A DNA stretch of 24,538 bases from Acidobacteriaceae bacterium (GCA_003168235.1 PMSZ01000129.1:2917-27454); one strand, 5' to 3'; positions 3,987-21,803 are shown, counted from the first letter of the stretch. Notes: generated from the sequence alone by a model not told the origin. Numbers and translations: made by a program.

Positions 3987-5375
3987 ATGACCGAATTATC
4001 TGAACTACTGCGGCGTGTGCCCGTCTTCGTGGATCTGCCCGACGATCAGATCTCATGGTTCCTCAGCCAATCCCAAGATCTGCAACTCAAGGCCGGGGAA
4101 TACTACGCACGTCAGGGCGATCCTGCGGACACGATGTCTGTCGTCCTCGAAGGACAACTAGAGCTCCGAGGCGAATTGTCCGGCGAAATGGTCGTGATTC
4201 CCATAGATGCGGGTGAAGTGACCGGCGTGCTCCCTTTCTCAAGGATGAAAAGTTTTTCCGTCAGTGGCCGCGCCATTGCCGACAGTCACCTCCTGCGATT
4301 TCCCGCGACACGCTTTCCGGAACTCGTGCAGAAAATGCCGGAGCTTACGAAGCGCCTCGTGGGCCTGATGTCCGACAGGGTCCGCGAAGCCACCCGGTTC
4401 GAACAACAGCGGGACCGGCTTTCCGCTCTGGGCAAGCTTTCGGCGGGTCTTGCTCATGAACTTAACAATCCTGCCTCTGCCGCAAAACGCGCCGCCGGTC
4501 AGCTGCGCGATCTTCTGATTAAAATCCGCAACGCGAGTCACGATCTGGGAAGGCGCGATCTCTCTTTGGCGCAGAAATCCGAGATTGAAAAAATGGAGGC
4601 CTCATTTACCCAGGGTGACGCGCCTCCGCCCGACGCCCTCGCGGCCAGCGCTCTGGAGGATCAGATTGACTCTTTGTTTCGGAATCACGGTCAGAACGAT
4701 CTGTGGCAACTAGCTGCCGATCTCGCGCGAAAGAATGTAAAGCCCGCAGCGTTGGAACAGCTTTTCACGACGCTGGACGCTGGTACCGCGCGTGCCGCGT
4801 TGGTGAGGATCTCGGCTTCTGTGGAGATTGCCGATCTGCTCAACCAGATTGAGAGCAGCACCTCGCGGATCTCGGAGTTAGTCGGGGCGATCAAGGAATA
4901 CACCTTCATGGACCAGTCGCCCTTGCAGAACGTCGATATCGTCAAGAGCCTGGAGAACACACTGGTCATCATGAATCACAAACTCAAGCAGGGAGTAAAC
5001 GTCCAGCGCGATTATCAGAAGGTTCCGCTCCTGGTGAACTCGTTCGGCAGTGAACTTAACCAGGTATGGACCAACATCATCGACAACGCCGTCGATGCAA
5101 TGGGTGGGGAAGGTGAACTTCGAGTGCGCGCTTATCGCGACGACAATTGCGCTTTGGTGGAGATTGGCGATAATGGCCCGGGGATTCCTCCTGACGTCCT
5201 GCCCCACATTTTCGAACCTTTCTTTACCACCAAGGGAGTGGGAGAAGGAACTGGACTTGGCCTTGACACGACGCAACGCATCGTGAAGAAACACCGCGGC
5301 AACATTCAAGTCAACTCACAACCGGGCGATACACGCTTTCAGGTTTGGCTGCCGCTCGCAGAAAGTTCTGTCTAG
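3987..5375 (+). CDS. Soluble sensor histidine kinase with N-terminal cyclic-nucleotide-binding (Crp-like) domain, 462 aa
   Basis: N-terminus LRRVPVFVDL...YYARQGDPADTMSVVLEG. H-box LAHELNNP, N-box ELNQVWTNIIDNAVDA, G boxes DNGPGI, FEPFFTTKGVGEGTGLGL. ATG directly abuts the upstream TAA. Confidence 0.9.
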   Translation: MTELSELLRRVPVFVDLPDDQISWFLSQSQDLQLKAGEYYARQGDPADTMSVVLEGQLELRGELSGEMVVIPIDAGEVTGVLPFSRMKSFSVSGRAIADSHLLRFPATRFPELVQKMPELTKRLVGLMSDRVREATRFEQQRDRLSALGKLSAGLAHELNNPASAAKRAAGQLRDLLIKIRNASHDLGRRDLSLAQKSEIEKMEASFTQGDAPPPDALAASALEDQIDSLFRNHGQNDLWQLAADLARKNVKPAALEQLFTTLDAGTARAALVRISASVEIADLLNQIESSTSRISELVGAIKEYTFMDQSPLQNVDIVKSLENTLVIMNHKLKQGVNVQRDYQKVPLLVNSFGSELNQVWTNIIDNAVDAMGGEGELRVRAYRDDNCALVEIGDNGPGIPPDVLPHIFEPFFTTKGVGEGTGLGLDTTQRIVKKHRGNIQVNSQPGDTRFQVWLPLAESSV

Positions 5376-6942: not shown

Positions 6943-7488
6943 ATGCCGCCATCGCTTAGTGGGCAACTCGCCGGAGTCGTCTTGTCCGACGCTGAGGGAC
7001 GTTCAGTCCAACTGGGCTCACTTTGGGCGAGCGGAACTGTGGTGGTTACCTTCCTTCGCCACTATGGTTGAATCTTCTGCCGCGAGCACATTGCGCGGTT
7101 GCGCGATCACGAGCGGGCGTTCACGGAGAAAGGTGCTCGGCTGGCCGTAATCGGTCTTGGCGATCTGCAGTACGCCCGGGCTTTCCACGCAGAGAGTGGA
7201 ATCACGTTCCCGCTTCTGGTCGACGAACAACGGCTGGCCTATCGTGCGGCCGGTCTTCGCAGCGCAACCCTGGCCCATCTGCTGTGGCGGGAGAATTCAG
7301 TTGCGCGGTCTAGAGCCCAAGCCGCGGGGCACCGGCAACATCGCCTGGGCAAGAATCCCTTTCAATTGGGTGGAAGCTTTGTTTTCGGCCCCGGGAACGT
7401 CGATCTGTACATACACATCAGCCAGACATTCGGAGACAATGCGTCGCCCGCCGATCTTCTGGCAGCGATTCCGTCAAAGCTGTCCTAA
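6943..7488 (+). CDS. Probable selenoprotein: peroxiredoxin-like / AhpC-TSA (thioredoxin-fold) protein with UxxC motif, 181 aa including Sec43
   Basis: Manual translation: MPPSLSGQLAGVVLSDAEGRSVQLGSLWASGTVVVTFLRHYG-(TGA 7069-7071)-IFCREHIARLRDHE...FPLLVDEQRLAYRAAGL...QLGGSFVFGPGNVDLYIHISQTFGDNASPADLL. The UGA sits at the first position of the CxxC motif and is in frame with ORF 7099..7488. Confidence 0.85.
7090..7107 (+). promoter_or_regulatory. Putative bacterial SECIS hairpin
   Basis: AUUGCGC-GGUU-GCGCGAU: 7-bp stem with one G-U pair. The loop starts with G, 25 nt after the UGA. A possible lower stem forms between 7078-7083 and 7113-7119. Confidence 0.65.
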
Positions 7489-7555
7489 GCCGGTTCACGC
7501 CGGACGGCGACGATGTGTCTGTGCGTTTCGATCTGGATATCGAGTAGAATCCGTC

Positions 7556-8239
7556 TCACAGTGCCGCCGACGGGCTTGTTCCCGCTGCCGCGAAGACGTC
7601 GGCAGTTTCCTGCTCCGCGATCGGGATGAACGTTTGTACCACCTCGGAATCGAATTGTGTTCCGCTGTTTTCCAGCAAACGGCGAACTGCTTCTTCGTGC
7701 GCGAGACCCGGCCGGTAGCATCGGTTAGAGACCATGGCGTCGTACGCGTCAATGACACAGATAATTCGCGAAACAAGAGGAATGTCGGTCCCCTCCAGGC
7801 CGGCCGGATAACCCTTCCCATCTATGCTTTCGTGGTGGTGCAAGGCATAGAGGCTCGCTTCTTCAAGGCCTGGGAAGAGACGAAGAATCGACCAGCTATA
7901 TTCGGGGTGGCGGTTGATAATCGCTCGTTCTCCCGCAGTGAGGGGTCCGTTCTTTTTCAGGATAGCGTCCGGGACGCCCACCTTGCCGATGTCATGCAAC
8001 AGCGCGGCGACTTCCACCTGGTATGAGCTCTCTTCGGGAATATTCATCTTGCGAGAAACCCGAAGCGCCCACTCGGCCAATCGCGTGCTGTGGACTCCCG
8101 TGCTGATGTCTTTCAGGTCGAGCAACTGATTGAACGCGCAGACCAGCGAATTGCGGAAGGCCAGATGCTGTTCCTCCAACTCCTTGACCCGCAACAGCAG
8201 CCCCGAAACCTCAAGCACCGAATTGTCGACACCCACCAT
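7556..8239 (-). CDS. Stand-alone HD-GYP domain protein (putative cyclic-dinucleotide phosphodiesterase), 227 aa
   Basis: HSTRLA...ALLHDIGKVGVPDAILKK.GPLT..E...I..HP...HHHESIDGKGYPAGL.G.DIPLVSRII.VIDAYDAM...RCYR. ATG at 8239 lies 20 nt downstream of the S8 stop. Confidence 0.88.
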   Translation of the reverse strand: MVGVDNSVLEVSGLLLRVKELEEQHLAFRNSLVCAFNQLLDLKDISTGVHSTRLAEWALRVSRKMNIPEESSYQVEVAALLHDIGKVGVPDAILKKNGPLTAGERAIINRHPEYSWSILRLFPGLEEASLYALHHHESIDGKGYPAGLEGTDIPLVSRIICVIDAYDAMVSNRCYRPGLAHEEAVRRLLENSGTQFDSEVVQTFIPIAEQETADVFAAAGTSPSAAL

Positions 8240-8259
8240 GCGTGGCCTGTCCCCGTGTC

Positions 8260-9597
8260 TTAAGGAAGTAAATTGCAGGCCTGCATCGCCTGGTACGTAT
8301 CCAGTCGTCCAAAGCCGAGGTTGATGTCCCCAATGTAGTGGGCATTGGCCAGGCCGACCGGAACGGTCCAGTTCGGACAGTTGCTGTTTGCGCCCAACAT
8401 CAAGGCTGCAGCACCAGCGACAAACGGAGTACTGAACGATGTTCCCCACCCGGCGGCATACGTGCCCCACGGATAAGTGGTGACGACGCCTTCTCCCGGC
8501 GCAGCCATAAACACCGGCGGCACACCATAGTTCGTGAAGGTCGACTGCGAGTCTTCGTTAGAAGTGGAGGCGACGTCGATCACGCCCGGCAGGCCGCCAG
8601 GATAGACCATGGTGTATTCTCCGCTATTACCCGCTGACGCGACCGAGATCACACCCTTGCTGTTCGCATATTTGATGGCCTGCGCGAGATCGCTCGAGTA
8701 GCTGGAGTAATTCCAGCTCATATTCATGACTTGAGCTCCATTGGCTACCGCGTAATAAATTGCGCGAAGAATATCGGAATCGTAGGCCGACCCGTTCGCG
8801 CTAAATGCCTTCAACGGCATGATCTTTGCCTGCGGCGCTACCAGGTGGATGATGCCGGCGGTCATGGTGCCATGGCCAAAGTCGGAGTAAGAGCCACCGT
8901 CCAGGACCGCGACGGTGCGCTGATCGAGAACGGCAACCGTGCGCTGATCCAGGACCGTGGGCGATGCCTCGGCATTGTTCTGGCTCGTGGTTGGACCTCC
9001 GCTAACGTCGGCGAGTTCGGACCCGCCGCTCACATTTCGCGTGAAATCATAGCCGTCGAAGAGCACGCCCTGCAACACCGGATGTGTTGGATCCACACCG
9101 GTATCGATATCGGCCACAATGACGCCATTGCCGGCAGCGTTGAACGCTGCTTGCGCCTGGCCGGTTCGCACCAGTTGATTTCCTGTTTGCACCAGATAGC
9201 CTTGCCAGACGGTAGTGCCATAGTAAGTCACCGGCGTTTCGTCGGTCATATATGACGGCGTGCCAGTGCTCACAGGCCCTTGCTGGCTCACCACCTGATC
9301 GACTTCTACCGACAGGACGCCGAGTTGCAGACTGATCTGCAACAGTTTGGTGACGGGATTCAGGATCGGCGGAAGCGTCACCAGGAACAGCTGGCCGTTC
9401 GGATCGCCAAGACCGCGGACCACGTTGCAACCCATCAGGAGGCAGGTTAAGTTAATGCCCGGCAAGCCAAGCGAGTCGGTCACGATGAGTCTCGTCTGTG
9501 CTTCTGCCGCGGGCGTACATGCCGAGACAACTACCAGAACCAGGCACGCCAGCCACCCCATGCCATTCCTTCGTCGCTGATCTTTCTGTTCCTTCAT
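8260..9597 (-). CDS. Secreted S8 (subtilisin-family) serine peptidase with short prodomain and internal octapeptide repeat, 445 aa
   Basis: Signal peptide ending AEA-Q. Triad motifs IVADIDTGVD, DFGHGTMTAGII, GTSFSTPFVAGAAAL. Oxyanion motif SAGN. Confidence 0.92.
   Translation of the reverse strand: MKEQKDQRRRNGMGWLACLVLVVVSACTPAAEAQTRLIVTDSLGLPGINLTCLLMGCNVVRGLGDPNGQLFLVTLPPILNPVTKLLQISLQLGVLSVEVDQVVSQQGPVSTGTPSYMTDETPVTYYGTTVWQGYLVQTGNQLVRTGQAQAAFNAAGNGVIVADIDTGVDPTHPVLQGVLFDGYDFTRNVSGGSELADVSGGPTTSQNNAEASPTVLDQRTVAVLDQRTVAVLDGGSYSDFGHGTMTAGIIHLVAPQAKIMPLKAFSANGSAYDSDILRAIYYAVANGAQVMNMSWNYSSYSSDLAQAIKYANSKGVISVASAGNSGEYTMVYPGGLPGVIDVASTSNEDSQSTFTNYGVPPVFMAAPGEGVVTTYPWGTYAAGWGTSFSTPFVAGAAALMLGANSNCPNWTVPVGLANAHYIGDINLGFGRLDTYQAMQACNLLP
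8899..8955 (-). repeat. In-frame tandem peptide repeat VLDQRTVA-VLDQRTVA-VLD inside the S8 catalytic domain
   Basis: Minus-strand codons: GTC CTG GAT CAG CGC ACG GTT GCC / GTT CTC GAT CAG CGC ACC GTC GCG / GTC CTG GAC. Confidence 0.9.
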
Positions 9598-9733
9598 AAT
9601 TTCTTACCTTTCCGAAAATGGGTCCGGTTTTGGGATGTTTCGCGAGTCTAACGTGCTGACTCTCGACCCGCCACTTACACCCGTAATCTCTTACCAGTAA
9701 CCAATTGCGGTTCCTTTCGTAAGGGGATGCATG

Positions 9734-10357
9734 TTACTTCAAGTTCGTGAGCGGGATCTGCACTCTGCGGCGCCCTACCCTCGCCGTTAGACGAAGGTGT
9801 TCCTGCGGCTCAAATTCGAGCTGAAACTCTCCAAACCCGTTGGCTGCAGCGGTCGCCACCAGCTGCCCGTCTTCGACCCAGACCACGATGGTTGCGCCCG
9901 TTACTGATTCGCGCGGAACTCGCTTATCGAGTATCTGTCCCACCGCAGAAACCCTGCGGGACGGCACAATCGGGTCGAAGCGCAAATCGACAGTCAGTCC
10001 TTCCGCTTCATAAACCACTTGCCGGGTGGTCGCAGCGCTGCTGCGAACGCCAGCCGTCAGAGGCTGCGAAAAGCTGTCAAACAGCAGACTGGCCAAGCTC
10101 CAATTCTCAGACTCAAACTTCGGCTTCGCTGCAGACTGCCGGGCTGTGAATTCGAACTTAGCCATGCGCACCAGGTTTTCGGGTGGAGCGTATGCGCTCT
10201 CTGCCAGTGCCACCGCCTGCAGATGTTCCCAGAAGTCGTAGACGGCCTTGCAATCCAGACAACCGGCGGTGAGATGGGCGTTGATACCCTGCGCTTTCCC
10301 AGGCACATCAAATCCTCGCGCAAAATCAGCCCATGCTTGCTCCGAAAAGTGCTCCAT
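9734..10357 (-). CDS. Soluble anti-sigma-factor-like protein (N-terminal zf-HC2/ZAS-like Zn motif, C-terminal beta-sandwich), 207 aa
   Basis: H-x4-C-x2-C (HLTAGCLDC) near the N-terminus, following MEHFSEQAWADF. Linker FDSFSQPLTAGVRS. C-terminal VGQILD...VVW..DGQLVATAAANGFGEFQL resembles carboxypeptidase-regulatory-like domains. No transmembrane stretch. Confidence 0.7.
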   Translation of the reverse strand: MEHFSEQAWADFARGFDVPGKAQGINAHLTAGCLDCKAVYDFWEHLQAVALAESAYAPPENLVRMAKFEFTARQSAAKPKFESENWSLASLLFDSFSQPLTAGVRSSAATTRQVVYEAEGLTVDLRFDPIVPSRRVSAVGQILDKRVPRESVTGATIVVWVEDGQLVATAAANGFGEFQLEFEPQEHLRLTARVGRRRVQIPLTNLK

Positions 10358-10464
10358 GCTTAACCTCGATTGAGAGGATTCGATAACGACCTCTCGATCT
10401 ATTGAATAAGGGACACCAGACCAGCGAAAAATATAGGTGATGAATAAAAATGTTAGGGCGCCGC

Positions 10465-13323
10465 TTATCCCTTTCCTACCAATGAGAAAGGAGCCCAGTG
10501 GTAAGGATGGGGATAGCGCTCTCGCAACTCGATCATGGCCGCTTGCATGGACGCAGCCTTCGACTGCCCGCGCTGTAGCCGTGCGTAGAACGCGATCATG
10601 AAGTCCTTCGTGCTCTCGTCGTGGACATCCCAGAGGCTGAGAACCAGCGACTGCGCTCCGGCCTGCAGCAGGCCACGCATTAATCCAATCAGCTCATCCC
10701 CAGGAGTAACAACGTTCAGTCCCGTGGCACAGCCGCTCAGGACAATCAGTTCCGCCGGCAATTGCAGGTGGTAAATGTCGTAGAGGCTTAAGTGCGAGTT
10801 CCCCAATCTAATCGAGGAGAACATTGGATTGTCTTGACGGAAATAGCCATGCGTTGCAATGTGGACAATCCGGCTCTTCCCACCGTGGTGCCGTAACACT
10901 TCCTCCGTTGCCCGCTCGCCTACAAACAGCTTGGCGTTGGGAAGCATCGCACTCAGCGCATCCACCTCGGTTTGAATCGAAGGCGTTTGCGCATCGGGAA
11001 TCCCAAGGATCAGAGGATCTCCCGTAGCGTTCGCCGGCTTGGACTGGCACAACGCGTATATGCTGGCGCTCGGAGCGTACGAAACCGAAAAACTATCAAT
11101 CAGGTACGACTCCCCGTCGTGCAGAGCGTGAAATGGAACGTAGTGGAGCGGCCCGTGCTGTACAAAGACCAGATGTTTCGTGTTGAGCTGATGACGGACC
11201 GGCGCAATCAGCTCCTGGTAGAGGTTCTTGAGATGTGCCTGGGTCGACTCCAGCAACGATTGGCTGAACGTCTCCAGATAATGCGGATCAAGACGGAATT
11301 TCGACATCTGGAATTGCAGCAATTGCAACAGCTTCTGAATGCGCGGCTGCAATGTTACCGGAATGATTCGCAATTCGTCTCGCGTCAGGATGCAAGCTAG
11401 ATATCGGTCTTGCACGCGGAAGTATTCGACCAGCGTTGCATCGGCCGGAAGTACGGAGCGAATCTGCTCGAGCGAGACGGTCGTGGCCACTTCCAGGCCA
11501 GCTTCGTGGGCCTCCGCAATTGTGGCCTCCTGCATGGCCCGCATCAGGTCGGTCTCGCGAAGACGTGCCTCTTGCTCGAGTTGTTTAATTCTTTCCTGCG
11601 ATCGCTCTTCGGGGCGCAATTGCTCCCGTTCGATCAGGTTGTAATACCAGTTCAACTCCTCGCGCAGGTTGCGGATCGAGCGCACTAGGTCACTTTGTCC
11701 CGCGTCGCTCGCCGACGGCACATGGATAGGATGACTCAGAAGATCGGCCAGAGTCCTGGACTTTGCCTGCTCGATGTAGCCAAACGCCTCTTCCACGCTG
11801 TTCTGTCGGCGGAGGCACAAATCCACCAGGTTTTCGTAAACTTCTAATTTATTCTGGAAAAATGCGAGCTTCAGCTCTTCGCCCCGCAAACTTCCGCGCA
11901 GCTGTTCTACAGCTTCCCGAGCGCGGCCATAGCACCGGTAGGCGTCTTCATCTTTCCTCGTAGCCCGCGAAATTTCACCCATCAGAAACTCGGCCTGATA
12001 TAGGAGCACGGGCGAATCCAGATTGGCCAAGTCCGAAAGCGCTTTCTGGCAGTGTGTATGCGCGGTGCCGGTGTCGCTCATGCGGAGAGCGATTCGCGCC
12101 ATCAGCAATTCTGCAAGCACGGCCTTGCCGGGCATCGCTGAGTCGCGAAAGAATTCATGGGCCGACACGCACAGCCGTCGTGCCTCAAACAAGCGTCCTT
12201 CATTGAAAAGAACCAGCGCTTCGTAAAGATCGATCAGCGAAGGCCACACCAGGTTCTTGTCTTGGACGAACATCTGCTTCGCTTGCGCGAATAGCTTGAC
12301 ACTCTCGAATGCCTGTCCCATGCGACTGGCCGCGATGGCGGCGAAGGCGAGTGCCTTCGCACCTTCATAACCAAACCCCAACTGCCGGAAGCCTTCGTTC
12401 GCTGCCCGTCCCAACTCGCCAGCCTCGGCGCTAAGATTCAGTTCAAGATAAATTTCAGAAAGGTCGAGATTGCACAGCGCTAGCTGATAAGCGTCACTTG
12501 CTTTGCCCGCGCTGTCGGAGGCATCGCGAAGCATCTGGATCGCGCGCCCGTACTCGCCTCGCAGAAAATAAAGATAGGCAATGTTGTAGTCGGCGTACGC
12601 GACCAGAATCGGCATGCCTCTTTGCTCGCAATGCTGGCGCGCGATGCGGTGGAATTCCAGGGCCTTCGGAAAATCATTGAGGCTGATATAGCAGAGAGAA
12701 AGATTACTCAGGACCGCTGCCAGTGCCTCGCCATCGTCATGTTTCAAAAGCTCATGATAGGCGCGTTCGTAAAATGCCAGTGCCTCGGCGAAACGGTCTT
12801 GCCGGTGGTAAATGTTGCCAAGATTGATTTCGAGCCGCGCCAAACGGCGCGTATTGCCCTGTTTCCGGAAGATTTCCGCCGCACGTCTTCCCGTGGCGGC
12901 GGCTTGATCGTACCGTCCAAGCAGCAACAAAGGCTGAATCGAGCCGCTCAGGCTGCGCGCCAACTCGGTGTCATCGCCGGCCTGTTCGAAGCACGCCGCA
13001 GCTCGCTCGTGATACTCAATCGATTGTGCATGCCGATCGAGCGCGTACAACGCATTCGCCTTCGCCCGGAAACTCCTTGCGAGTGAGATTTGACTGCCTG
13101 TGGCTTCAGCGACATCGATCGCCGCATCCGCAATGCGGTCGGCGCGATGCGTGTCAATCCTGACCTCCTGCCAGACGCGTTCGGTTAGCGTCGTGACCGC
13201 TTCGTCCCAGGCGATTTCAGGATTTTCTGTCATGAACTCGCGGCGCCCCTTCGCGTCTTCCAACGCGAGCAGCCGCTTGATCATGGCCTCCGACTCTGTC
13301 TGCCGCGCCGGCTGGGTGCTCAT
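10465..13323 (-). CDS. TPR-repeat + CHAT (caspase/HetF-like) cysteine protease, 952 aa
   Basis: Multiple TPR-like helices (ARLEINLGNIYHRQDRFAEALAFYERA; AAVLSNLSLCYISLNDFPKALEFH). CHAT motifs PLHYVPFHALHDG, VHIATHG (His at 10849-10851), LIVLSGCATG (Cys at 10729-10731), SLVLSLWDV, HPYHWAPF. ATG at 13323 overlaps the sigma TGA. Confidence 0.92.
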   Translation of the reverse strand: MSTQPARQTESEAMIKRLLALEDAKGRREFMTENPEIAWDEAVTTLTERVWQEVRIDTHRADRIADAAIDVAEATGSQISLARSFRAKANALYALDRHAQSIEYHERAAACFEQAGDDTELARSLSGSIQPLLLLGRYDQAAATGRRAAEIFRKQGNTRRLARLEINLGNIYHRQDRFAEALAFYERAYHELLKHDDGEALAAVLSNLSLCYISLNDFPKALEFHRIARQHCEQRGMPILVAYADYNIAYLYFLRGEYGRAIQMLRDASDSAGKASDAYQLALCNLDLSEIYLELNLSAEAGELGRAANEGFRQLGFGYEGAKALAFAAIAASRMGQAFESVKLFAQAKQMFVQDKNLVWPSLIDLYEALVLFNEGRLFEARRLCVSAHEFFRDSAMPGKAVLAELLMARIALRMSDTGTAHTHCQKALSDLANLDSPVLLYQAEFLMGEISRATRKDEDAYRCYGRAREAVEQLRGSLRGEELKLAFFQNKLEVYENLVDLCLRRQNSVEEAFGYIEQAKSRTLADLLSHPIHVPSASDAGQSDLVRSIRNLREELNWYYNLIEREQLRPEERSQERIKQLEQEARLRETDLMRAMQEATIAEAHEAGLEVATTVSLEQIRSVLPADATLVEYFRVQDRYLACILTRDELRIIPVTLQPRIQKLLQLLQFQMSKFRLDPHYLETFSQSLLESTQAHLKNLYQELIAPVRHQLNTKHLVFVQHGPLHYVPFHALHDGESYLIDSFSVSYAPSASIYALCQSKPANATGDPLILGIPDAQTPSIQTEVDALSAMLPNAKLFVGERATEEVLRHHGGKSRIVHIATHGYFRQDNPMFSSIRLGNSHLSLYDIYHLQLPAELIVLSGCATGLNVVTPGDELIGLMRGLLQAGAQSLVLSLWDVHDESTKDFMIAFYARLQRGQSKAASMQAAMIELRERYPHPYHWAPFSLVGKG

Positions 13324-13934
13324 CAGAAGCCCCTCTTTTCCAGTCGTTTCTTGAGCTGGGCGAGACACCGTCCCCGGATGAATCCGATCGAGCCGATTGC
13401 AAGTCCGAGTTCCTGCGCAACCTCCTCGTAGGGGCGTGAGGGAGTCTCGAAGAAAAGCATCTGGATCATGCGCTCGCAACGCTCCGGCATCTCGGAGATC
13501 GCGTCGCGCAGCGATTGTTCTTGCTCGAGTTGCACCAACATGCTGTCCGGGAGCTCATGATCGCTGTTGTCGTGCGGCCTTTCCGCAACTTCTGGTTCGA
13601 GTTCGACAAGTCGGCCGGCGCTGCGTCGGTAATGCACGCATTTGTGATAGCAAGCCTGCATCAGCCATTTCGGCAGCGCCCGGTGTTCCCGCAAGCGCGG
13701 CAGTTCCAAAAGTAGATCCACGCATACCGCCTGAAAAATGTCGGCCGCATCCTGATACATGCCCAGCTTGATCGGGATGGAGTAGATCAGGTTCTTGTAT
13801 TTATCGATGAGTGCAGCCCAGGCCTCCGGGTCGCCGTTAAGGCAATTCTTGATCAGTTTGTCGTCCGAAAAAAGAGCTGGTGCGCGTGCCGTCGCCGCCC
13901 GCTCTTTCTGACGCTTGGCCGCAGGACCTGTCAT
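13323..13934 (-). CDS. ECF-type sigma-70 family RNA polymerase sigma factor, 203 aa
   Basis: Region 2 (LIKNCLNGDPEAWAALIDKY...DAADIFQAV...LPKWL) and region 4 (LRDAISEMPERCERMIQMLF...YEEVAQELGLAIGSIGFIRGRCLAQLKK). Confidence 0.9.
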   Translation of the reverse strand: MTGPAAKRQKERAATARAPALFSDDKLIKNCLNGDPEAWAALIDKYKNLIYSIPIKLGMYQDAADIFQAVCVDLLLELPRLREHRALPKWLMQACYHKCVHYRRSAGRLVELEPEVAERPHDNSDHELPDSMLVQLEQEQSLRDAISEMPERCERMIQMLFFETPSRPYEEVAQELGLAIGSIGFIRGRCLAQLKKRLEKRGF

Positions 13935-15718
13935 CGCGTTCCCGCATTCTCCAGGCCGCCGCGAATGTAGAGTTCATCGGCATTCCACAGCGTGTTCGGG
14001 TCCAGTACAGCAGGATGAAAATTTCCCAGGCGCCCGTCGGCTCCTGCCAGAGTGTTTGGTGTTGCCAAAAAAATAAACGGCAGATTTTCAGAAATGATTT
14101 GCTGCACGCGATCGTACGTCCGTTTGCGCTGGTTGTAATCGAGCTCGACCATTTGCCGTTGCATCAGCTGGTCGATCTCGCGTTCCCAGTCGGTGGCCGG
14201 TTGTTTCTCGCCGAGGTTCCACAGGTGGGAAGTGCCGCTCGACATCCAGACATTCATCTCCGGATTCGGGTCGGCATCGCCGCCTCCCAACCCCATGATG
14301 GCCGCGTCATAGTCGAAGCTCTGAAAAACGCGGTCGATGAGCGCGCGAAACTCCAGCGGAACGACATGCACCTGCATTCCCAGATGCGACAGGTCATCTT
14401 GCAGCAGCGTTGCCATCTTCATCCGCTGGGCATTCGACGAACTGGTGACGATGGTGAAATCGACGGTCTCCCCGGAGCCATCCACAAGCTCCCCATTTGT
14501 CTTCCAGGAAAATCCGGCGGATTTCAGCAATTGGCGCGCCGTTTCGAGCGAGCGCTGCGGATGCGAGATTGCTTGATTGATCCAGAGCTTGTTCCCCGGT
14601 CCAACGTTTCCCCACAGGGGCGTGCCGCGCGTTCCGTAGACCAGACGGACGATTCCGTCGCGGTCGATGGCAGCATTGACCGCTTGCCGAAATTTGAGAT
14701 CGCGAAACCAAACCTGTTTGCGTGCAATCGCGTCCAGCTTCTTGCCAGTCAAATCGTTTTGGTTGAAGACCACAAAGTTGTATTCCAGGCTGGGGCCAAG
14801 ATCCGCCAATTGCGAACTGACACGCGTCCCTTCGTGGGCGAGCAGATTGAAGTTCTCCGAACTGAGCCGGCTGATAATATCCGTTTCGCCGGCTTCAAAA
14901 CGTAGGACCTGCGCGTTTTCCGTGCCGACGAAGAGAAACACCATTTCATCCAGATAAGGCAGCCGGTGGTTGTCGCGATCGACCTTCCAGTAGTAAGGAT
15001 TGCGTTCCGCCACGATGCGCTGTCCCGGCACGTACTGCTTCAAGCGAAATGGACCAAGACCTGCGATCTCGGAGGGTTGCGCGTTGAGCGACCAAGCCTG
15101 CGCAAATTTGCCTTCGCGATAAGGTTTCTCGAGCAGATGCCTCGGCAGCATGGCGAGCCCGTCGAAGATGCGTTCCGCCGCCGCATACGGCCGTGGCAGC
15201 GTGAACCGCACCGTGTACGGACCGATCTTGGCGACCGTCATCGGCTTGCCATCGATAATCAGCAGGTCGCGCTGCGGAGAATCGATGTTTTCATCCATGT
15301 AGACGGCGAAAGAAAAAATCACGTCATCGGCATCGAATGCATGACCATCTGAAAACCGGATACCCCGCCGAAGTTGCAACGTGAAAATGCGGCCATCCGC
15401 CGACGTCTTCCAGGACTTGGCCAGCGCCGGCTCGGTTTGCTGCGTGGCGCGATTGATTTCGATCAGATCGGCATTCAAGCGTCCGATCACCTCGCGCGAA
15501 ACGGCATCGGTAGCGATCACCGGATTCAGCGTCTTCGGCTCCGCGCGCTGACCGACGGTCAAGTGTCCGCCATAGCGGCCGGAAGTGTCCGCCACGCGCT
15601 GAAGTTCTTCATTCTTGCCCGGGTTTTCGGGAGCAGGATTTTCTGCGGAAGACGCACCCGCTACGCACACGCCAGCGAGCAGACACACGAGTAGGGATAG
15701 GCGAGCAATGACGTTCAT
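13931..15718 (-). CDS. ABC transporter substrate-binding protein, family 5 (OppA/DppA/NikA-like), 595 aa
   Basis: YGGHL...EPKTLNP, EPALAKSWK.S.DG..FTL.LR.GI.FSDGH.FDADDVIFS, GLGPFRLKQY.PGQRIV..RNPYYW, FRQAVN.AIDR. Signal-like N-terminus and RBS GGAGG. Confidence 0.92.
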   Translation of the reverse strand: MNVIARLSLLVCLLAGVCVAGASSAENPAPENPGKNEELQRVADTSGRYGGHLTVGQRAEPKTLNPVIATDAVSREVIGRLNADLIEINRATQQTEPALAKSWKTSADGRIFTLQLRRGIRFSDGHAFDADDVIFSFAVYMDENIDSPQRDLLIIDGKPMTVAKIGPYTVRFTLPRPYAAAERIFDGLAMLPRHLLEKPYREGKFAQAWSLNAQPSEIAGLGPFRLKQYVPGQRIVAERNPYYWKVDRDNHRLPYLDEMVFLFVGTENAQVLRFEAGETDIISRLSSENFNLLAHEGTRVSSQLADLGPSLEYNFVVFNQNDLTGKKLDAIARKQVWFRDLKFRQAVNAAIDRDGIVRLVYGTRGTPLWGNVGPGNKLWINQAISHPQRSLETARQLLKSAGFSWKTNGELVDGSGETVDFTIVTSSSNAQRMKMATLLQDDLSHLGMQVHVVPLEFRALIDRVFQSFDYDAAIMGLGGGDADPNPEMNVWMSSGTSHLWNLGEKQPATDWEREIDQLMQRQMVELDYNQRKRTYDRVQQIISENLPFIFLATPNTLAGADGRLGNFHPAVLDPNTLWNADELYIRGGLENAGTR

Positions 15719-15754
15719 GACACCCCTCCCCCACAGAACGGTGTTTTTCTGGGA

Positions 15755-16762
15755 TTATCGTGATTCTAACCGGGAATGAAGGGCATCAGCGAGCAGGTAA
15801 TAGATTACGGAGGTAACGAATAATGCAGCAGCTGGAGCCAGAAGCCAGCCATAAGAAATCAGCACGCTGTATTGTTGCAAAGCGCTCAGCATGTTTCCCC
15901 AACTCGCAGTCGGTTCGTTGACTCCCAACCCAAAAAATGACAAAGCTACTTCCGCCGCAATGTATCGCGGGACTAACATCGCCGCCTGCGTGAGCAACAC
16001 GCCGAACGTCTCCGGCGCGATGTGTCTCCGTAGTAGGTAGAAGTCGGCCCCCCCGAAACCACGCGCAGCAGAGACATAATTTCTGGTTCTTGAGCTGAGC
16101 ACCACTCCTCGTACCAGCCGCGCGGGCCGTGCCCAGCCAATGAGCCCGATGACGCAAGTCAGTAGAAAAAATGTTCGGACCGCACTCACATGCAACGGCA
16201 GAAACGCCCGCACGCCAAGCAGAAAATAGAGCCACGGCAGGGAAAGGAACAGCTCGGTCGTTCCCATTAGCGTCTCGTCAATCCATCCACCGTAATAACC
16301 GGCAACAACGCCAATCACGCTGCCAACGAAAAGAGTCACAGCGGTTGCGACAATTCCCGCTGCCACCGAAATCTGTCCGCCATACAACACGCGCGAGAAC
16401 TCATCACGGCCGAACGCGTCTGCTCCCAAGAGCAGGCATTTTCCGGGATTCTCCACTCCAAATAAATGGAGGTTGGATTCGAAGAGACCAAGAAACCTAT
16501 AGCTGTCTCCCCGGACGAACGCATGAACCGGATACGCCTGGCTGCGATCTTCCCGATACCCGTCATCCACCGGACTCCACGGGTAAACGAACGGCCGCAG
16601 GTGGAATCTAGAGCTGTCCCAGAGATGTAATCGTGTCGGCGGAGCGTAAGGCAACTCGCGATTTTGCGCGGCCGGATCGTAAGGAGCGACAAAACCCGCC
16701 AGCAGTAACAGCAGGTGCAGCCCAACTAGCAGAATGATCAGCCAAGTAATCTTGCCGCTCAT
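15755..16762 (-). CDS. ABC transporter permease (OppC/DppC-like), ~335 aa
   Basis: LLGADAFGRDEFSRVLYGGQIS, AGYYGGWID, GWARPARLVRG, EVALSFFGLG...SWGNML. Alternative start at 16786. Confidence 0.9.
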   Translation of the reverse strand: MSGKITWLIILLVGLHLLLLLAGFVAPYDPAAQNRELPYAPPTRLHLWDSSRFHLRPFVYPWSPVDDGYREDRSQAYPVHAFVRGDSYRFLGLFESNLHLFGVENPGKCLLLGADAFGRDEFSRVLYGGQISVAAGIVATAVTLFVGSVIGVVAGYYGGWIDETLMGTTELFLSLPWLYFLLGVRAFLPLHVSAVRTFFLLTCVIGLIGWARPARLVRGVVLSSRTRNYVSAARGFGGADFYLLRRHIAPETFGVLLTQAAMLVPRYIAAEVALSFFGLGVNEPTASWGNMLSALQQYSVLISYGWLLAPAAALFVTSVIYYLLADALHSRLESR

Positions 16763-16775
16763 TTTACATCGCACC

Positions 16776-17753
16776 CTAACCTGCATCGGCCGCGCCTGTC
16801 CGAATCCTGGGATCGGATACCATCAGCATGATGTCCGCAACCATGTTTCCGCCGAGCATGAAGAGCGCGGAAAACATGATGCCGCCGATCACCACGTAGA
16901 GGTCGCGAGAGAAAGTGGCGTCGAGCACCAGCGGCCCCAAACCGGGCCATCCGCAGATCACCTCCACCAGCATCGACCCGCTGATCAACCCGGCTAGGGA
17001 AAAGCCGAAAAGAGAAATCGCAGGATTGGCCGCGACCGGCAACACGTGGCGGAAAAGCAACCTGCCACGGCTGATGCCAAGACCGCGCGCAGTTTGCACG
17101 TAGGAAGCGCCTAACACTTCAAGTACACTCGCGCGGACGTGCCGTACTATCACTGCGCTTTCGCACAGCACCAGAATCACTACCGGCAATGTCAAGTGCG
17201 CGACGACATCTCTGAATTGCTCCCACCCCGAGAGCTCCTCAAAATTGCTCGATACCATTCCGCCGACCGGCGTCAACCGCCAGCGTGCGGCAGTAGCAAG
17301 CAGCGCGAGTGCAATCACAATCTCCGGGACTGCAATCAGCAGCGAACTTATGACGGTGATTGCTCGATCCAGCACCCCGCCTCGCTTGGCCGCAGCCCAA
17401 AGTCCCAGCGGTAGCGAAATGCCCCACGTGAGAACCATCGCTGTTAGTGTCAGCAATAAAGTATTTTTCGCACGGCTCCAGAGCAGCGGAGCCACGGGTG
17501 TGTTGTAAGCGATGGAATAGCCGAGGTCCGCATGCAACGCCGATTTCACCCACCGTCCGTACCGGACAACGAGCGGTTGATCCAGGCCATGCTGGGCGCG
17601 CAACCCGGCAATGGTTTCGGGCGAAATCTGCGGGTTCACTCGCATCTCATCAAAAAAGCTCCCCGGTGCCATCTCTGTGAACAGGAAGCAGAGCACGGAT
17701 ACGCCTGCGAGCAACAAAATCCCGCGTACAAGTCGACGGACAAGATAGCTCAC
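16776..17753 (-). CDS. ABC transporter permease (OppB/DppB-like), 325 aa
   Basis: YLVRRL...GLDQPLVVRYGRW...DLGYS, YVQTARGLG...HVLP, GSMLVEVI.GWPGLG...RDL. The GTG start overlaps the upstream TGA. Confidence 0.9.
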   Translation of the reverse strand: MSYLVRRLVRGILLLAGVSVLCFLFTEMAPGSFFDEMRVNPQISPETIAGLRAQHGLDQPLVVRYGRWVKSALHADLGYSIAYNTPVAPLLWSRAKNTLLLTLTAMVLTWGISLPLGLWAAAKRGGVLDRAITVISSLLIAVPEIVIALALLATAARWRLTPVGGMVSSNFEELSGWEQFRDVVAHLTLPVVILVLCESAVIVRHVRASVLEVLGASYVQTARGLGISRGRLLFRHVLPVAANPAISLFGFSLAGLISGSMLVEVICGWPGLGPLVLDATFSRDLYVVIGGIMFSALFMLGGNMVADIMLMVSDPRIRTGAADAG

Positions 17754-18607
17754 AGCGAAGCTCCCGTAATCGCCGCCAGATTGGTCTGCGCAGCACGTGC
17801 CGATCTCAAAAGCCGAATCGTCTCTTCATGTTTCGGAGCGGTCATCATCTCTGCTGTTGAGCCCATCTCCACTATCCGCCCACCCGCCATCACCGCGATT
17901 ACATCAGCCATGCGGCCAACCACCGCCGGATCATGCGAGATCAGGAGATACGTGAGCGAGTGCGCCGCCTGAAGATCCAGCAACAGATTCGCAATCTGCC
18001 CCTGCGTCGACAAATCCAAACCGGTGAGAGCTTCATCCAAAACCAGGAGCTTTGGACGCACCGTCAGCGCACGCGCAATCGCCAGCCTCTGCCGTTGTCC
18101 ACCGCTGAACTGCATCACCGACCGTTCGATCCCGTCCACCGACAGTCCAACCTCGTTCACCGAGCTTCGGACCGTTTCTCTGCGGAGCGCTTCGTCTTTC
18201 CCCATGATTAGTAATGGCTCCTCCACGGCCTCCGCCGCCGTGAAACGCGGATTCATCGACGTAACTGCATCCTGAAAAACCATCTGGACTTGCGTGCGCC
18301 ACGGAAGCAGCGCGCTCAAGCTAAGGCTCGCGATGTCTGTGTCGCCGATCCATATTTGCCCCGCGTCCGATTTTTCCAGCAGCGCCACGCACCGCGCCAC
18401 AGTCGATTTCCCCGAGCCCGATTCTCCCACCAGCGCCAGTGTTCGGCCTGCCGCAATTTCGAAGTCCACACCGCGCACCGCCTCCACAACGCGTTCCCGC
18501 CACAGTCCTCCTCGAACGTAGCGTTTCGCCAGACCGCTCACGCGCAAGAATGCATTTTGCGACTCGGGCTCCCGCGACATCGGCCGAGTTGGAAAGTTAC
18601 TCACCAT
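17750..18607 (-). CDS. ABC transporter ATP-binding protein (OppF/DppF-like), 285 aa
   Basis: Walker A GESGSGKS, QMVFQD, signature SGGQRQR, Walker B LVLDE, ISHD. Confidence 0.9.
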   Translation of the reverse strand: MVSNFPTRPMSREPESQNAFLRVSGLAKRYVRGGLWRERVVEAVRGVDFEIAAGRTLALVGESGSGKSTVARCVALLEKSDAGQIWIGDTDIASLSLSALLPWRTQVQMVFQDAVTSMNPRFTAAEAVEEPLLIMGKDEALRRETVRSSVNEVGLSVDGIERSVMQFSGGQRQRLAIARALTVRPKLLVLDEALTGLDLSTQGQIANLLLDLQAAHSLTYLLISHDPAVVGRMADVIAVMAGGRIVEMGSTAEMMTAPKHEETIRLLRSARAAQTNLAAITGASL

Positions 18608-19583
18608 ACTTGAAGCAGCTCACTGGCCTTGCGGGCATCGGCACAAAAGATGGCGGATACCTCTGCACGCAAATTTCCATCCGTTCCCGGCAGCGTGGCT
18701 CAAAGCGGCATCCAACCGGAAACGCAGCGGGGTTAGGCGACTCGCCTTCGATCGACGCGAAATGCGTGCGCACTGGTGCGCCCACGGCCGACTTTGCCAT
18801 CTCAACCAATGCCTGTGTATAGGGATGTAAGGGCTGCCGGAGAATCTGGGCCGTGTTGCCAATCTCGACAATCTTTCCCGCATACATCACGGCAATGCTA
18901 TCGATGAATCCAGCGAACATCGCTGGATCGTGACTGATGACTAGAATTGCCGTTCCATGTTTTCGGCGAATTTGCGCCAGCAGCGCGACAATTTCCTCCT
19001 GCAGGGGCGCATCCAGCTTACTGGTTGGTTCGTCGGCGATCAGCAACGCAGGTCGGCACGCAACTGCCTGCGCAATCGCGATTCGTTGCCGTTGTCCGCC
19101 ACTGAGCTGATGTGGATACGCATCATAGATTTCTTCCGGACGGACGAATCCAACCTCGCCTAGCAACTCAAGAACGCGTGCCCGGCGCTGCTTTCGGCCC
19201 AAGGGTAAATGCGCGCGAAGTATTTCAGCCACCTGGCTGCCGACACTCAGCACTGGATTCAACGAGAGCGCTGGGTCCTGAGGGACGAACGTAACTTCGC
19301 GGCCCCTAATTGCGCGCAGCTCCCGTTCCGACATTCGCAGTAAATTGCGTCCGCGAAAAAGTATTTCTCCTTGTTCGCAAACCGCGCCCGCCGGCAACAG
19401 CCGCAGAAGCGCATTCGCGAGCGTGCTTTTGCCGCAGCCGGATTCTCCGAGGATTCCGACAATCTCCTCGCTGCCGATGGCAAGACTGAGATCGTCGACC
19501 GCCGGAATACGGCTCCCATTGGCTAGGGTATAAGCTACCGACAACCCTCGTACCGCGACAAGAACTTTCCCTGTGCCGTCCAC
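18597..19583 (-). CDS. ABC transporter ATP-binding protein (OppD/DppD-like) with C-terminal HPY/Cys domain, 328 aa
   Basis: GESGCGKS, YPHQLSGGQRQR, LIADEPTSKLD, HPYTQAL, GCRFEPRC...VSCF. GAGG upstream of the GTG. Confidence 0.9.
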   Translation of the reverse strand: MDGTGKVLVAVRGLSVAYTLANGSRIPAVDDLSLAIGSEEIVGILGESGCGKSTLANALLRLLPAGAVCEQGEILFRGRNLLRMSERELRAIRGREVTFVPQDPALSLNPVLSVGSQVAEILRAHLPLGRKQRRARVLELLGEVGFVRPEEIYDAYPHQLSGGQRQRIAIAQAVACRPALLIADEPTSKLDAPLQEEIVALLAQIRRKHGTAILVISHDPAMFAGFIDSIAVMYAGKIVEIGNTAQILRQPLHPYTQALVEMAKSAVGAPVRTHFASIEGESPNPAAFPVGCRFEPRCRERMEICVQRYPPSFVPMPARPVSCFKYGE

Positions 19584-19708
19584 TTTGTAGAAACCTCGTC
19601 AGAATAAGTTTCGTCGGCGCAACTGCTCTTCGCAATTGGCGAGTAAGGAGCCTGGAAGAGACTGCTCCCAAAATGTATTAAGAATGGGTCGGGTGGCGCG
19701 TTTGAAAC

Positions 19709-20650
19709 CTATCGCGCCTGACGATGGGTGTCGTGCCGGCGAATAAATTCTTGCATTCGATCTCCGTTTCGAAATGCTTCGGTGCCTCCACACTCGGTGG
19801 TGGAAAAGGCTCCGCACAGATTTCCGTATGAAAGGCACGTCGCGATGTCCGCTCCGCGCAAAAATTGGTGGAGAAACCCGGCGTCAAAACTGTCGCCCGC
19901 GCCAATAGGATCGACGACTGCTACCGGAACGGCGGCTGCGCTAAGTCGGCGACCGTCGCGCATGGCAACAGCACCGCTGGCGCCCATCTTGACGACGACA
20001 GTCTCAACCCTCTGTGCCAAACGCGAAAGAGCGGTCTCCACATCGCCAGCGCGGGAAATCCTCATCGCTTCACGTTCGTTCGGCAACAAAATGTCCACGT
20101 GAGGCAGGATCTCATCGAGACCGCTGCCCCAGAGGTCATCGGGATCGTCATTCGTGTCGAGCGAAGTAGCCAAGCCAGCCGACTTCATATGCCGAAACAG
20201 TTCGGGCACGTGCGGCAGCAGTTCGCGCTGCAAGAAAAGCGACGACATATGAAAGTGGCGTGCCGATGCCAGATAGTCGAGATCGAGATCCTCAAAGCGT
20301 AACTCAGAGATTGTGCCAGGATATGTGAGAATATGCCGCTCGCGCCCATGGGGCAGAATAAGTGTCACGCCGGACTTGGGTCCGCAGGCCACGCACTCCA
20401 GATTGACGCCGCGTTCGCGTAGGCGGTCCAACGCGAGGCTTCCGAAAAGGTCGTTGCCGATCTTAGTGACGAATCCAACGCGGCTGCCAAGAGCGGCAAG
20501 ATTGTGTGCCAGGATGGCCGACGAACTGCCCAGCGTAATCGCAAAGTCGCTCGCCAGTAGTTCCCGCTCGGTGGGCATTTGCTCTGGCAGACCGTAGAGG
20601 ATCAGGTCAAGGTTGATCTCCCCGACGATGGCGATATCGAGCTTAGACAT
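19709..20650 (-). CDS. PfkB-family carbohydrate kinase, ~313 aa
   Basis: GSSSAILAHNLAALG, ILLPNEREA, VVVKMGASGA, DPIGAGDSFDAGF. Alternative GTG start at 20668. Confidence 0.9.
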   Translation of the reverse strand: MSKLDIAIVGEINLDLILYGLPEQMPTERELLASDFAITLGSSSAILAHNLAALGSRVGFVTKIGNDLFGSLALDRLRERGVNLECVACGPKSGVTLILPHGRERHILTYPGTISELRFEDLDLDYLASARHFHMSSLFLQRELLPHVPELFRHMKSAGLATSLDTNDDPDDLWGSGLDEILPHVDILLPNEREAMRISRAGDVETALSRLAQRVETVVVKMGASGAVAMRDGRRLSAAAVPVAVVDPIGAGDSFDAGFLHQFLRGADIATCLSYGNLCGAFSTTECGGTEAFRNGDRMQEFIRRHDTHRQAR

Positions 20651-20701
20651 GGAGCAAAAGGTCGGCACTGTTGTTAAATGCCGACTGCTTAATGTGCGTT
20701 G

Positions 20702-21784
20702 TCAATGGCCGTCCGCGAGTTCGACGACGCGTGACAGGTTCCTTGGCGAGTCAGGATCGAGCCTCTTCTTGATCCCGTAGTAAGCCCCATACAGTTGGCC
20801 CCAAATCGCAAAAGCCGCAACGCGCGCGTATTCCGGTAACTGCAGGCCGAGTTCGATGGCGAAGTCCGCGGCGCGCCGCGCCCGGTCATCGACGCGATTC
20901 GCAATCACCATGGTGGCCGCGCCGAGAGCCTTCATTTCCTCGAGTAACTCCAGTTCCGCCTCGTAAGAAGTCTCCGACATAAGAAACGTGATCAGTGTTT
21001 CCGGACCCGCGATGGACTTCGGACCGTGCCTAAACTCCAGGGAATGAAATGCTTGCGCGTAGGAGCAAGAGGATTCAGTCACCTTCAGCGCGCACTCCGA
21101 GGCAACCCCGAAAAGCGGACCCTGCGCCAGGAAGACGAAATCCGAAAAGCTGCAAGAGTCAGCGAACGTTTGCAAACGGCGCGGAATGTCCTCAAGTAGA
21201 GGTTCGACGTGCTGGGGTAGATCGATCAATGCCCGGCGGAACGCGACATCGCCGGCCACAATTGCCCCGAGATACTGCAGTGCCAGCAGCATAGAAGTGA
21301 ATGACCGCGTCATTACCGTGCTTTGTTCGTCAGCGTCCGAAAGTTTCGACGTTACACTGCAAGTCTGCTCGAGCGGTTGGCCATCGGCACAGGTGATAGC
21401 AATCGTACGCAGATTGTAATCGGTTTCCAGCATCTGCCCGGCGCGGACCGCCTCCGAGGTGCGCCCCGATCGCGAAATGACGACCGGAACATACTCTCGT
21501 CCCGGGTGTAGAGTCAGCGCTGGATACAGCATCAGCTCAGAAGCGGCGACAGCTCGTGCCGGTAGCCTGAGATAGTTGAAGCTCGATGCGGCGGCTTGTG
21601 CGAGATAGTAGCTCGTTCCGCAACCGACAAAGATCCACTCTGCTCCTGGCCGCGCGAGTTGAGCGGCCGCGCGCAGTTCTGCGCTCGCCGACAGTTGGCT
21701 TAGACACGCGCTCCAGCACTGCGGCTGAGAAAGAATTTCGTTCAGCGTGTGTTGGCCTGGTTCTTTGATTGCCGTCGATTTCAT
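20702..21784 (-). CDS. Two-domain SIS sugar-phosphate isomerase/deaminase (AgaS/NagB-II/GlmS C-terminal-like), 360 aa
   Basis: EILSQP, FVGCGTSY, ISRSGRTSE, EQSTVMTRSFTSM, ALKVTE, EFRHGPKS. No N-terminal glutaminase domain. Confidence 0.85.
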   Translation of the reverse strand: MKSTAIKEPGQHTLNEILSQPQCWSACLSQLSASAELRAAAQLARPGAEWIFVGCGTSYYLAQAAASSFNYLRLPARAVAASELMLYPALTLHPGREYVPVVISRSGRTSEAVRAGQMLETDYNLRTIAITCADGQPLEQTCSVTSKLSDADEQSTVMTRSFTSMLLALQYLGAIVAGDVAFRRALIDLPQHVEPLLEDIPRRLQTFADSCSFSDFVFLAQGPLFGVASECALKVTESSCSYAQAFHSLEFRHGPKSIAGPETLITFLMSETSYEAELELLEEMKALGAATMVIANRVDDRARRAADFAIELGLQLPEYARVAAFAIWGQLYGAYYGIKKRLDPDSPRNLSRVVELADGH

Positions 21785-21803
21785 TGCTATCAGCTGGCTC
21801 CAA

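Follow-up and report, generated by a model that had tools for sequence, protein, structure and literature searches.

Introduction

Sigma factors whose release may depend on a CHAT-domain protease have been described in several settings. In ECF54, a group within the extracytoplasmic function (ECF) sigma factors, proteolytic control has been proposed, though never tested, because carboxypeptidase, subtilase and CHAT proteins are conserved alongside; the review that reports this (PMC8999054) takes the context from Huang et al. (2015) and from Casas-Pastor et al. (2021), and describes the group as Actinobacterial and without an anti-sigma factor (see also PMC7826278). In the type III-E CRISPR system Craspase, Csx29, a protease combining tetratricopeptide repeats (TPR) with a CHAT domain, cleaves Csx30, which holds an RpoE-type sigma factor (PMC10028731). 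Finally, in Myxococcus xanthus, the DdvS/DdvA pair consists of an ECF sigma factor and a zinc-type anti-sigma domain with a TPR-CHAT module, and CHAT-mediated release of the sigma factor has been proposed (PMC11506125). Here, we describe a block of ten genes in a 24,538-nt stretch of DNA (the window) from an Acidobacteriaceae bacterium (GCA_003168235.1 PMSZ01000129.1:2917-27454). The block encodes an Opp-type ATP-binding cassette (ABC) importer, an ECF-type sigma factor, a TPR-CHAT protease, a putative soluble anti-sigma factor, an exported subtilase (S8) and an HD-GYP protein. We suggest, at a probability of roughly 0.45, that it is a peptide-gated proteolytic sigma switch, in which an ECF54-type cassette has acquired an Opp-type importer and an HD-GYP output.

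A conserved but accessory block

An earlier note, made by inspection of the window, had proposed ten co-oriented genes with these domains, and all ten were found on the minus strand at 7556-19583 (Pfam, NCBIfam; Table 1). The stop/start overlaps that it reported among the binding-protein, sigma and CHAT genes were likewise confirmed by direct reading, as ATGA where the binding-protein gene ends and the sigma gene begins, and as TGATG between sigma and CHAT. Two gene starts were corrected. The CHAT gene begins at the ATG at 13323 (952 amino acids) rather than at the start of the longest open reading frame (ORF), and the HD-GYP gene begins at 8239, not 8470, about 20 nt past the S8 stop codon, and hence does not overlap the S8 gene.

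The names carried by homologues put the source organism in Candidatus Sulfotelmatobacter, order Terriglobales. CHAT orthologues are present in 10 of 24 genomes of the same genus, and the order of all ten genes is identical in the nine whose flanks were fetched; at one of these loci (L014) the contig ends just inside the binding-protein gene. The transporter genes, whose absence beside sigma-CHAT in relatives the earlier note had considered fatal to its proposal, are therefore kept. Outside the genus, all ten genes are present in G025, from another family of the same order, in a rearranged layout, and in G054, which is also from outside the family. Five genomes of a further genus, g3, carry the permeases, the binding protein and TPR-CHAT together, with no sigma, anti-sigma or S8 gene there. 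A wider scan, with the S8 alignment against one genome per species, uncovered about 29 more loci with the order binding protein-sigma-CHAT-anti-sigma-S8, mostly preceded by four transporter genes and, in about 19 cases, followed by an HD-GYP gene. These loci are distributed among Terriglobales, Acidoferrum, Bryobacteraceae, Angelobacter, Vicinamibacteria and others, and circularly permuted versions of the block also exist (L035, L067 and L070). Judged by this shared order and by recurrence across acidobacterial orders, the ten genes are one conserved functional unit, as the earlier note had supposed. The unit is also accessory and moves as a whole, since five near-complete genomes of the same genus that have no CHAT orthologue are missing S8 as well.

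Two further loci have a disrupted reading. In one same-genus genome, a second, more divergent copy of the block (L031; G016:C13:47707-64467) has its sigma gene split in two, its CHAT gene in many frames and about 2.5 kb between the CHAT and anti-sigma genes, a state due either to decay of the copy or to a fault in assembly. In G028, which is 97% complete and in which no CHAT orthologue was found, a frameshifted remnant (L152; G028:C38:79963-83325) preserves anti-sigma residues 2-64 only, with S8 and HD-GYP each in two frames, and the S8 remnant still contains NQYAMAVVN twice.

A sigma factor, a putative hidden anti-sigma factor and a TPR-CHAT protease

The sigma factor matches TIGR02937 at 74.3 bits against a cut-off of 42.9 (NCBIfam), while the Pfam region 2 and region 4 models stay below their cut-offs. 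It is of the ECF type, possessing regions 2 and 4 only. The 207-residue protein encoded downstream of CHAT has an N-terminal HxxxCxxC domain, a linker with an invariant R105 and a C-terminal beta-sandwich resembling CarboxypepD_reg; PF13620 is listed on some of its homologues. Residues H28, C33 and C36 are invariant, and together with R105, D124, G140, Q141 and G176-E177-F178 they form the set conserved in at least 90% of 55 homologues. Its suggested role as the anti-sigma factor is supported by a modelled complex with the sigma factor, which scored 0.81 against 0.00 for the best control; the mark applied is one that 55 of 80 solved complexes attain, as do 3 of 110 mismatched pairs, and because sigma/anti-sigma complexes have already been solved, passing it denotes likeness and not proof of binding. 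The predicted contacts place anti-sigma residues 6-74 on sigma residues 31-75 and 138-203, which supports binding of sigma regions 2 and 4 through the HxxxCxxC domain. The earlier note had also called this protein cytoplasmic, in agreement with the lack of any hydrophobic segment (maximum Kyte-Doolittle 19-residue mean, 1.08).

A profile of the 207-residue protein finds matches in 25 of 401 Acidobacteriota genomes, with several cassette copies in some of them (seven profile matches in G331). Most of 20 fetched contexts contain a four-gene cassette of sigma factor, 207-residue-type protein, TPR-CHAT and S8, usually with no transporter, and about 15 of the contexts read are cassettes without an importer. 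By its neighbour genes, this core cassette is the one already catalogued as the ECF54 context. By the modelled complex, the "carboxypeptidase-like" protein of the cassette is here a hidden anti-sigma factor.

The TPR-CHAT protein, which also lacks a hydrophobic segment (maximum Kyte-Doolittle 19-residue mean, 1.41), retains the His/Cys dyad described in the earlier note, with His825 and Cys865 invariant in 42 homologues. Its CHAT domain resembles Csx29 (E 5e-11) and NF041237 (E 6e-15). In profile comparisons, its TPR region resembles RapJ, RapF and NprR (E 5e-10 to 8e-8), a generic likeness in which kinesin light chain and LGN score higher.

Octapeptide cores within the subtilase

The S8 protein has a hydrophobic N-terminus and, as the earlier note observed, two identical octapeptides. 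The two copies of QRTVAVLD differ at 6 of 24 bases, all of them silent. The repeat is far beyond chance, and is present in every orthologue and in most of the S8 clade. A near-exact tandem unit occurs in 81 of the 150 best S8 cluster representatives; nearly all of these units have a period of eight, take the form xQSTxAILD and lie between the catalytic Asp and His.

The boundaries of the core were determined by anchoring 253 copies from 52 loci on their six inner residues. Within every locus, position 1 (Q) and position 8 (D or N) are then 100% identical and the flanking residues agree at just 0.6-0.8, with spacers between cores of 0, 1, 2 or up to 28 residues. These sharp edges and variable spacers indicate a discrete eight-residue core rather than a structural repeat of fixed period. 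They also shift the register: the conserved core is QRTVAVLD (Q...D/N), and not the DQRTVAVL of the earlier note.

At the nucleotide level, copies with the same protein sequence are 3-7 bases apart out of 24 at almost all loci, a near-saturation of silent differences that excludes recent slippage and shows purifying selection on the peptide. Two related Angelobacter genomes (L078 and L081, sigma factors 9% diverged) differ by Ser versus Thr in all seven copies, spread over two S8 paralogues. Both AGY and TCN codons are used for Ser, and the change was hence a parallel one among the copies rather than a single conversion. On these boundaries and patterns of substitution, the cores are discrete and under peptide-level selection for identity. 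In an AlphaFold2 model of the S8 protein, the mean predicted local-distance difference test score is 89.8, with means of 48-74 for ten-residue blocks over residues 201-240, consistent with an exposed loop for the repeat region.

Other arrangements of repeats were also encountered. At L151 (G040:C222:4027-7464), six cores in the S8 loop are accompanied by ten head-to-tail units, PVRMN(QSTASVLN)x10 GATEP, which may lie in the S8 gene or in a neighbouring one. In an importer-less cassette (L038; G331:C69), the S8 gene at 9889-11514 contains the 8-mer PRTIVFID twice, upstream of the catalytic Asp, so that the subtilases of such cassettes can have peptide repeats outside the Asp-His loop as well.

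The importer and its association with the cores

The transporter genes make up a complete PepT/Opp-type set, with a family-5 binding protein, two BPD_transp_1 permeases and two ATPases, of which only ATPase 1 has the oligo_HPY tail. The binding protein has a hydrophobic N-terminus, and its best solved relative is the oligopeptide-binding AppA (1xoc, E 5e-36). Its gene stays beside TPR-CHAT after rearrangement, even with no adjacent sigma, anti-sigma or S8 gene (L023-L025, L028-L030, L044 and L113), and at L061 it is kept without permease genes.

In cassettes without an importer, the Asp-His loop of the S8 protein has no such cores, the partial exceptions being a degenerate pair at L099 and the two-copy 8-mer located elsewhere in L038. 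In g3, each of the five genomes with the binding-protein/TPR-CHAT pair has two S8 genes that are unlinked and contain 3-6 or more copies of QSTASVLN; in two g3 genomes where no such pair was found, S8 genes of the same subfamily are present and have no core. In G028, with no CHAT match, only the frameshifted anti-sigma/S8/HD-GYP remnant is left. Taken as a whole, the cores are co-distributed with the binding-protein/TPR-CHAT pair, in the pattern that a functional link predicts, among genomes that are few and related to one another. The importer is joined to the cassette only where the subtilase has Q-x6-D/N cores.

Covariation with core type was also scanned for, controlling for overall divergence, in windows of the TPR, CHAT, binding-protein, sigma, anti-sigma and S8 sequences. 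Only the core-containing S8 windows were conspicuous (z 3.3-3.4). Behind them came residues 41-80 of the binding protein (partial r 0.49, z 2.1), S8 residues 261-300 (0.48) and residues 441-480 of the binding protein (0.39), all too weak to claim. The two binding-protein windows lie near the segments that hold the ligand backbone in OppA and DppA structures, which is a lead rather than a result.

Candidate regulatory elements and transcription

In 21 of 33 importer-type loci, a bipartite motif, TATATTTTT-N14-CCCTTAT, is located 20-75 nt 5' of the anti-sigma start. In the window, it has one match where 0.03 would be expected. Of four genomes searched, three (G000, G021 and G009) have a single occurrence and the fourth (G004) has two. 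The motif is a good promoter candidate for the anti-sigma/S8/HD-GYP unit, and recognition by the sigma factor of the block may be supposed.

The intergenic region 5' of the S8 gene, 9598-9733, is rich in the words GTAAC, GTTAC, CTTAC and GTAAG. Across ten species, its conserved blocks are GGTAAC, CTTACCAAAGGAAC, GTTACT and GTACGGGTGTAAGTGG, which resemble repeated TTAC/GTAA half-sites at which a protein may bind the DNA. A consensus RNA fold of the same spacer has an energy of -2.09 kcal/mol and is unsupported. Searches of 7000-20000 against Rfam at E-values up to 1 returned no match, CRISPR RNA families included. A sigma-70 promoter scan of 7000-20800 gave no sites, and terminator-like sites are at chance level.

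Contigs from peat and permafrost metatranscriptomes cover the locus. In three runs (X2-X4) coverage is in pieces, with the S8 bins deepest. In another (X1), a 23.7-kb contig spans the whole stretch, so that DNA carry-over may be a source of this coverage.

Features of the window

Table 1. Genes and candidate elements of the ten-gene block, by position in the window
Feature	Position	Strand	Basis and remarks
ABC ATPase 1	18597..19583	-	ABC_tran + oligo_HPY (Pfam); first gene of the block; synteny conserved
ABC ATPase 2	17750..18607	-	ABC_tran (Pfam); 11-nt overlap with ATPase 1
ABC permease 1	16776..17753	-	BPD_transp_1 with N-terminal domain (Pfam)
ABC permease 2, OppC-like	15755..16786	-	BPD_transp_1 (Pfam); OppC_N weak on the L055 orthologue
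Family-5 solute-binding protein, Opp/Dpp/App type, predicted exported	13931..15718	-	SBP_bac_5, E 2e-78
Divergent ECF-type sigma factor, 203 amino acids	13323..13934	-	TIGR02937
TPR-CHAT protease, cytoplasmic, 952 amino acids	10465..13323	-	CHAT E 2e-66; TPR_12 (Pfam); His825/Cys865 dyad
Bipartite motif TATATTTTT-N14-CCCTTAT, candidate promoter	10406..10435	-	5' of anti-sigma gene
Putative soluble anti-sigma factor, 207 amino acids	9734..10357	-	own sequence without family match; HxxxCxxC domain
Conserved intergenic region 5' of S8 gene	9598..9733	-	alignment of 10 orthologous spacers
Exported pro-subtilase (S8)	8260..9597	-	Peptidase_S8 E 8e-38; signal peptide, propeptide-like domain, flexible Asp-His insertion
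Two QRTVAVLD cores, S8 residues 218-233	8899..8946	-	sequence reading
Stand-alone HD-GYP protein, 227 amino acids	7556..8239	-	HD_5 E 3e-39; LLHDIGK and HHHESIDGKGYP present (HD and GYP motifs)

Genes on either side of the block were also noted. At 6-1860 on the plus strand, an FGE-sulfatase-like (EgtB-like) gene is followed by one for a Methyltransf_33 histidine-specific methyltransferase (EgtD-like), a pair that is probably involved in ergothioneine biosynthesis. At 2316-5375, also on the plus strand, one gene joins a receiver domain to a pyridine-nucleotide disulphide oxidoreductase and is translationally adjacent to another, for a histidine kinase with a cyclic-nucleotide-binding domain, making an unusual two-component pair. 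Upstream of the block, at 19709-24434 on the minus strand, a PfkB kinase, a SIS-domain protein, a DeoR regulator and an outer-membrane barrel of the TonB-dependent type constitute a separate sugar-use cluster, the genes of which were not found beside the block in relatives, save that L017 has a partial, weak match to the gene for the barrel.

Proposed mechanism and alternatives

In the sigma switch that we propose, the exported pro-subtilase would present its two cores in the flexible Asp-His loop, and extracellular proteolysis would free them. The family-5 binding protein and the ABC transporter would import the peptide into the cytoplasm, where the TPR region of the CHAT protease may sense it. 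The His825/Cys865 site would then cut the soluble anti-sigma factor, perhaps in the conserved linker near R105, and the freed sigma factor would transcribe the anti-sigma/S8/HD-GYP unit from TATATTTTT-N14-CCCTTAT. The signal would thereby come under positive feedback, the anti-sigma factor would supply negative feedback, and cyclic-di-GMP signalling would change. That the S8-borne core is itself the signal is a more tentative part of this proposal, and less likely than not. It is also tempting to suggest that the Acidobacteria possess an undescribed cell-to-cell or self/kin peptide language, in which a secreted subtilase bears, within its catalytic domain, several copies of a genome-specific Q-x6-D/N pheromone that has no small precursor gene, is re-imported by a dedicated Opp-type transporter and causes the caspase-like TPR-CHAT protease to cut the anti-sigma factor and free the sigma factor; this full version is doubtful.

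Several observations weigh against the proposed switch. The cores sit between the catalytic Asp and His, where excision would nick the catalytic domain. The earlier note had offered covariation of the repeat with the TPR pocket as a check, and none in excess was seen: peptide distance correlates with TPR distance at a Spearman coefficient of 0.62, against 0.56-0.62 for the sigma or S8 domains, and with overall divergence removed, TPR windows track core type at a partial r of only 0.2-0.3 (z about 1). Likewise, L079 and L081 share QSTTSILD, yet their TPR regions are 50% different. The relatives of the binding protein also include nickel, opine and sugar binders, and its ligand is not readable from sequence. 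In three TPR-CHAT proteins linked to a binding protein (L028, L029 and L030, in G037, G036 and G029, respectively), the dyad is lost, with His replaced by R, S or a gap and Cys by V, Y or Q, so proteolysis is not always needed; these proteins are still full-length beside the binding-protein gene, to which the TPR-CHAT gene is convergent in L029 and L030, and their state suggests a non-proteolytic, sensor-only role. Neither the bipartite motif nor any shared dyad was found 5' of the sigma gene in 17 importer-less cassettes, and the motif is thus not assignable to this sigma family. Finally, some S8 genes with repeats have neither CHAT nor ABC genes beside them (L057/58, L059/60, L073, L091 and L093), and such genes are solitary or have unrelated neighbours.

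The last of these observations, together with the absence of TPR covariation, would be expected if the locus served to sense protein as a nutrient. The subtilase would then digest environmental proteins, the importer would take up mixed oligopeptides as both food and cue, and the switch would raise protease and uptake capacity, with the cores acting as tethered pseudo-substrates or as docking elements by which the zymogen is held latent. Subtilisins have a P4-P1 preference that the hydrophobic-hydrophobic-D/N end of the core suits, and S8 windows within residues 241-320, which include substrate-binding segments, are among the best trackers of core type (partial r 0.41-0.48). A pseudo-substrate, however, need not match in every copy and in two paralogues, and the parallel Ser/Thr change in seven copies, the sharp eight-residue edges and the variable spacers all point to one discrete recognised entity. 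The g3 cores, moreover, are found only in genomes with the binding-protein/TPR-CHAT pair. On balance, we regard nutrient sensing as unlikely.

The wide occurrence of the four-gene cassette without an importer (25 of 401 genomes for the profile; about 15 contexts) and the cataloguing of the same context for ECF54 raise another explanation, namely that the cassette answers a cytoplasmic cue unrelated to imported peptides, as in other phyla, and that the importer is co-transcribed cargo or a regulon member. This is difficult to reconcile with the persistence of the binding-protein gene beside TPR-CHAT in rearranged loci and in those with no adjacent sigma, anti-sigma or S8 gene, with its translational coupling to the sigma gene, or with its retention at L061 where the permeases are gone, and we consider it improbable. 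Least credible of all, and very improbable, is an anti-phage or conflict system in which CHAT, as an analogue of Craspase, would bring about death or arrest, and for which the likeness to Csx29, the multi-copy cassette of some genomes (seven matches in G331) and the accessory status of the block in the genus (10 of 24 genomes; absent from five near-complete ones) might be cited, but PADLOC returned no system-level match and only weak, generic TPR and subtilase hits, the window holds no CRISPR, nuclease or NTPase partners, and an exported subtilase, a nutrient-type importer and an HD-GYP protein are unlike known defence layouts.

Significance and comparison with known systems

The earlier note knew of no such circuit in this lineage. 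That holds for the importer-linked version, but not for the core cassette, which is the catalogued ECF54-type context. In the searchable literature, no description was found of the importer-linked block, of its peptide words or of TPR-CHAT in combination with an oligopeptide, a sigma factor and a subtilisin. If the proposed switch is real, import-based peptide signalling, so far a Firmicute trait, would extend to an abundant and poorly understood soil phylum, and a natural CHAT protease would be under the control of a small ligand instead of CRISPR RNA. The ECF54-type sigma context would also gain its first mechanism, and a signal would be seen to be encoded in a new way, by selected multi-copy cores within an enzyme. 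If the peptide is no more than a zymogen element, the identity-preserving evolution of the cores would still be unexplained and easily testable.

Among described systems, the ECF54 context as given in PMC8999054 shares the side-by-side arrangement of an ECF-type sigma factor, a CarboxypepD_reg-like protein, a subtilase and CHAT. That context is reported there from Actinobacteria and with no anti-sigma factor, whereas here the CarboxypepD_reg-like protein has an HxxxCxxC domain that is modelled on the sigma factor, and the block adds the Opp-type importer, the HD-GYP protein and the peptide cores in the subtilase. Craspase likewise has a TPR-CHAT protease with a His/Cys pair, encoded with a sigma factor and a sigma-binding protein. 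In contrast to Craspase, there is no Cas7-11, CRISPR RNA or CRISPR array among the genes of the window or in the Rfam scan of 7000-20000, the proposed activator is a peptide and not a target RNA, and the putative anti-sigma factor is of the zinc type with HxxxCxxC, not Csx30. With DdvA, the block shares an N-terminal zinc anti-sigma domain (HxxxCxxC) on sigma regions 2 and 4, here as a model only. DdvA, however, is one transmembrane protein with a periplasmic TPR-CHAT, while the anti-sigma factor and TPR-CHAT of the block are separate and both predicted to be cytoplasmic; DdvS/DdvA, unlike the block, also comes without a subtilase or an importer.

Finally, the proposed logic of a secreted and processed short peptide, Opp-type import and a cytoplasmic TPR receptor is that of the RRNPP systems of Firmicutes (Rap-Phr, NprR-NprX and PlcR-PapR). 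The Acidobacterial block differs from these in that its ORF list contains no small propeptide gene, the cores lying instead inside an enzyme, and in that the output of the candidate receptor is a CHAT protease rather than a helix-turn-helix domain or a phosphatase. Its importer, too, is a dedicated one that is linked to the locus, and the phylum is a different one.

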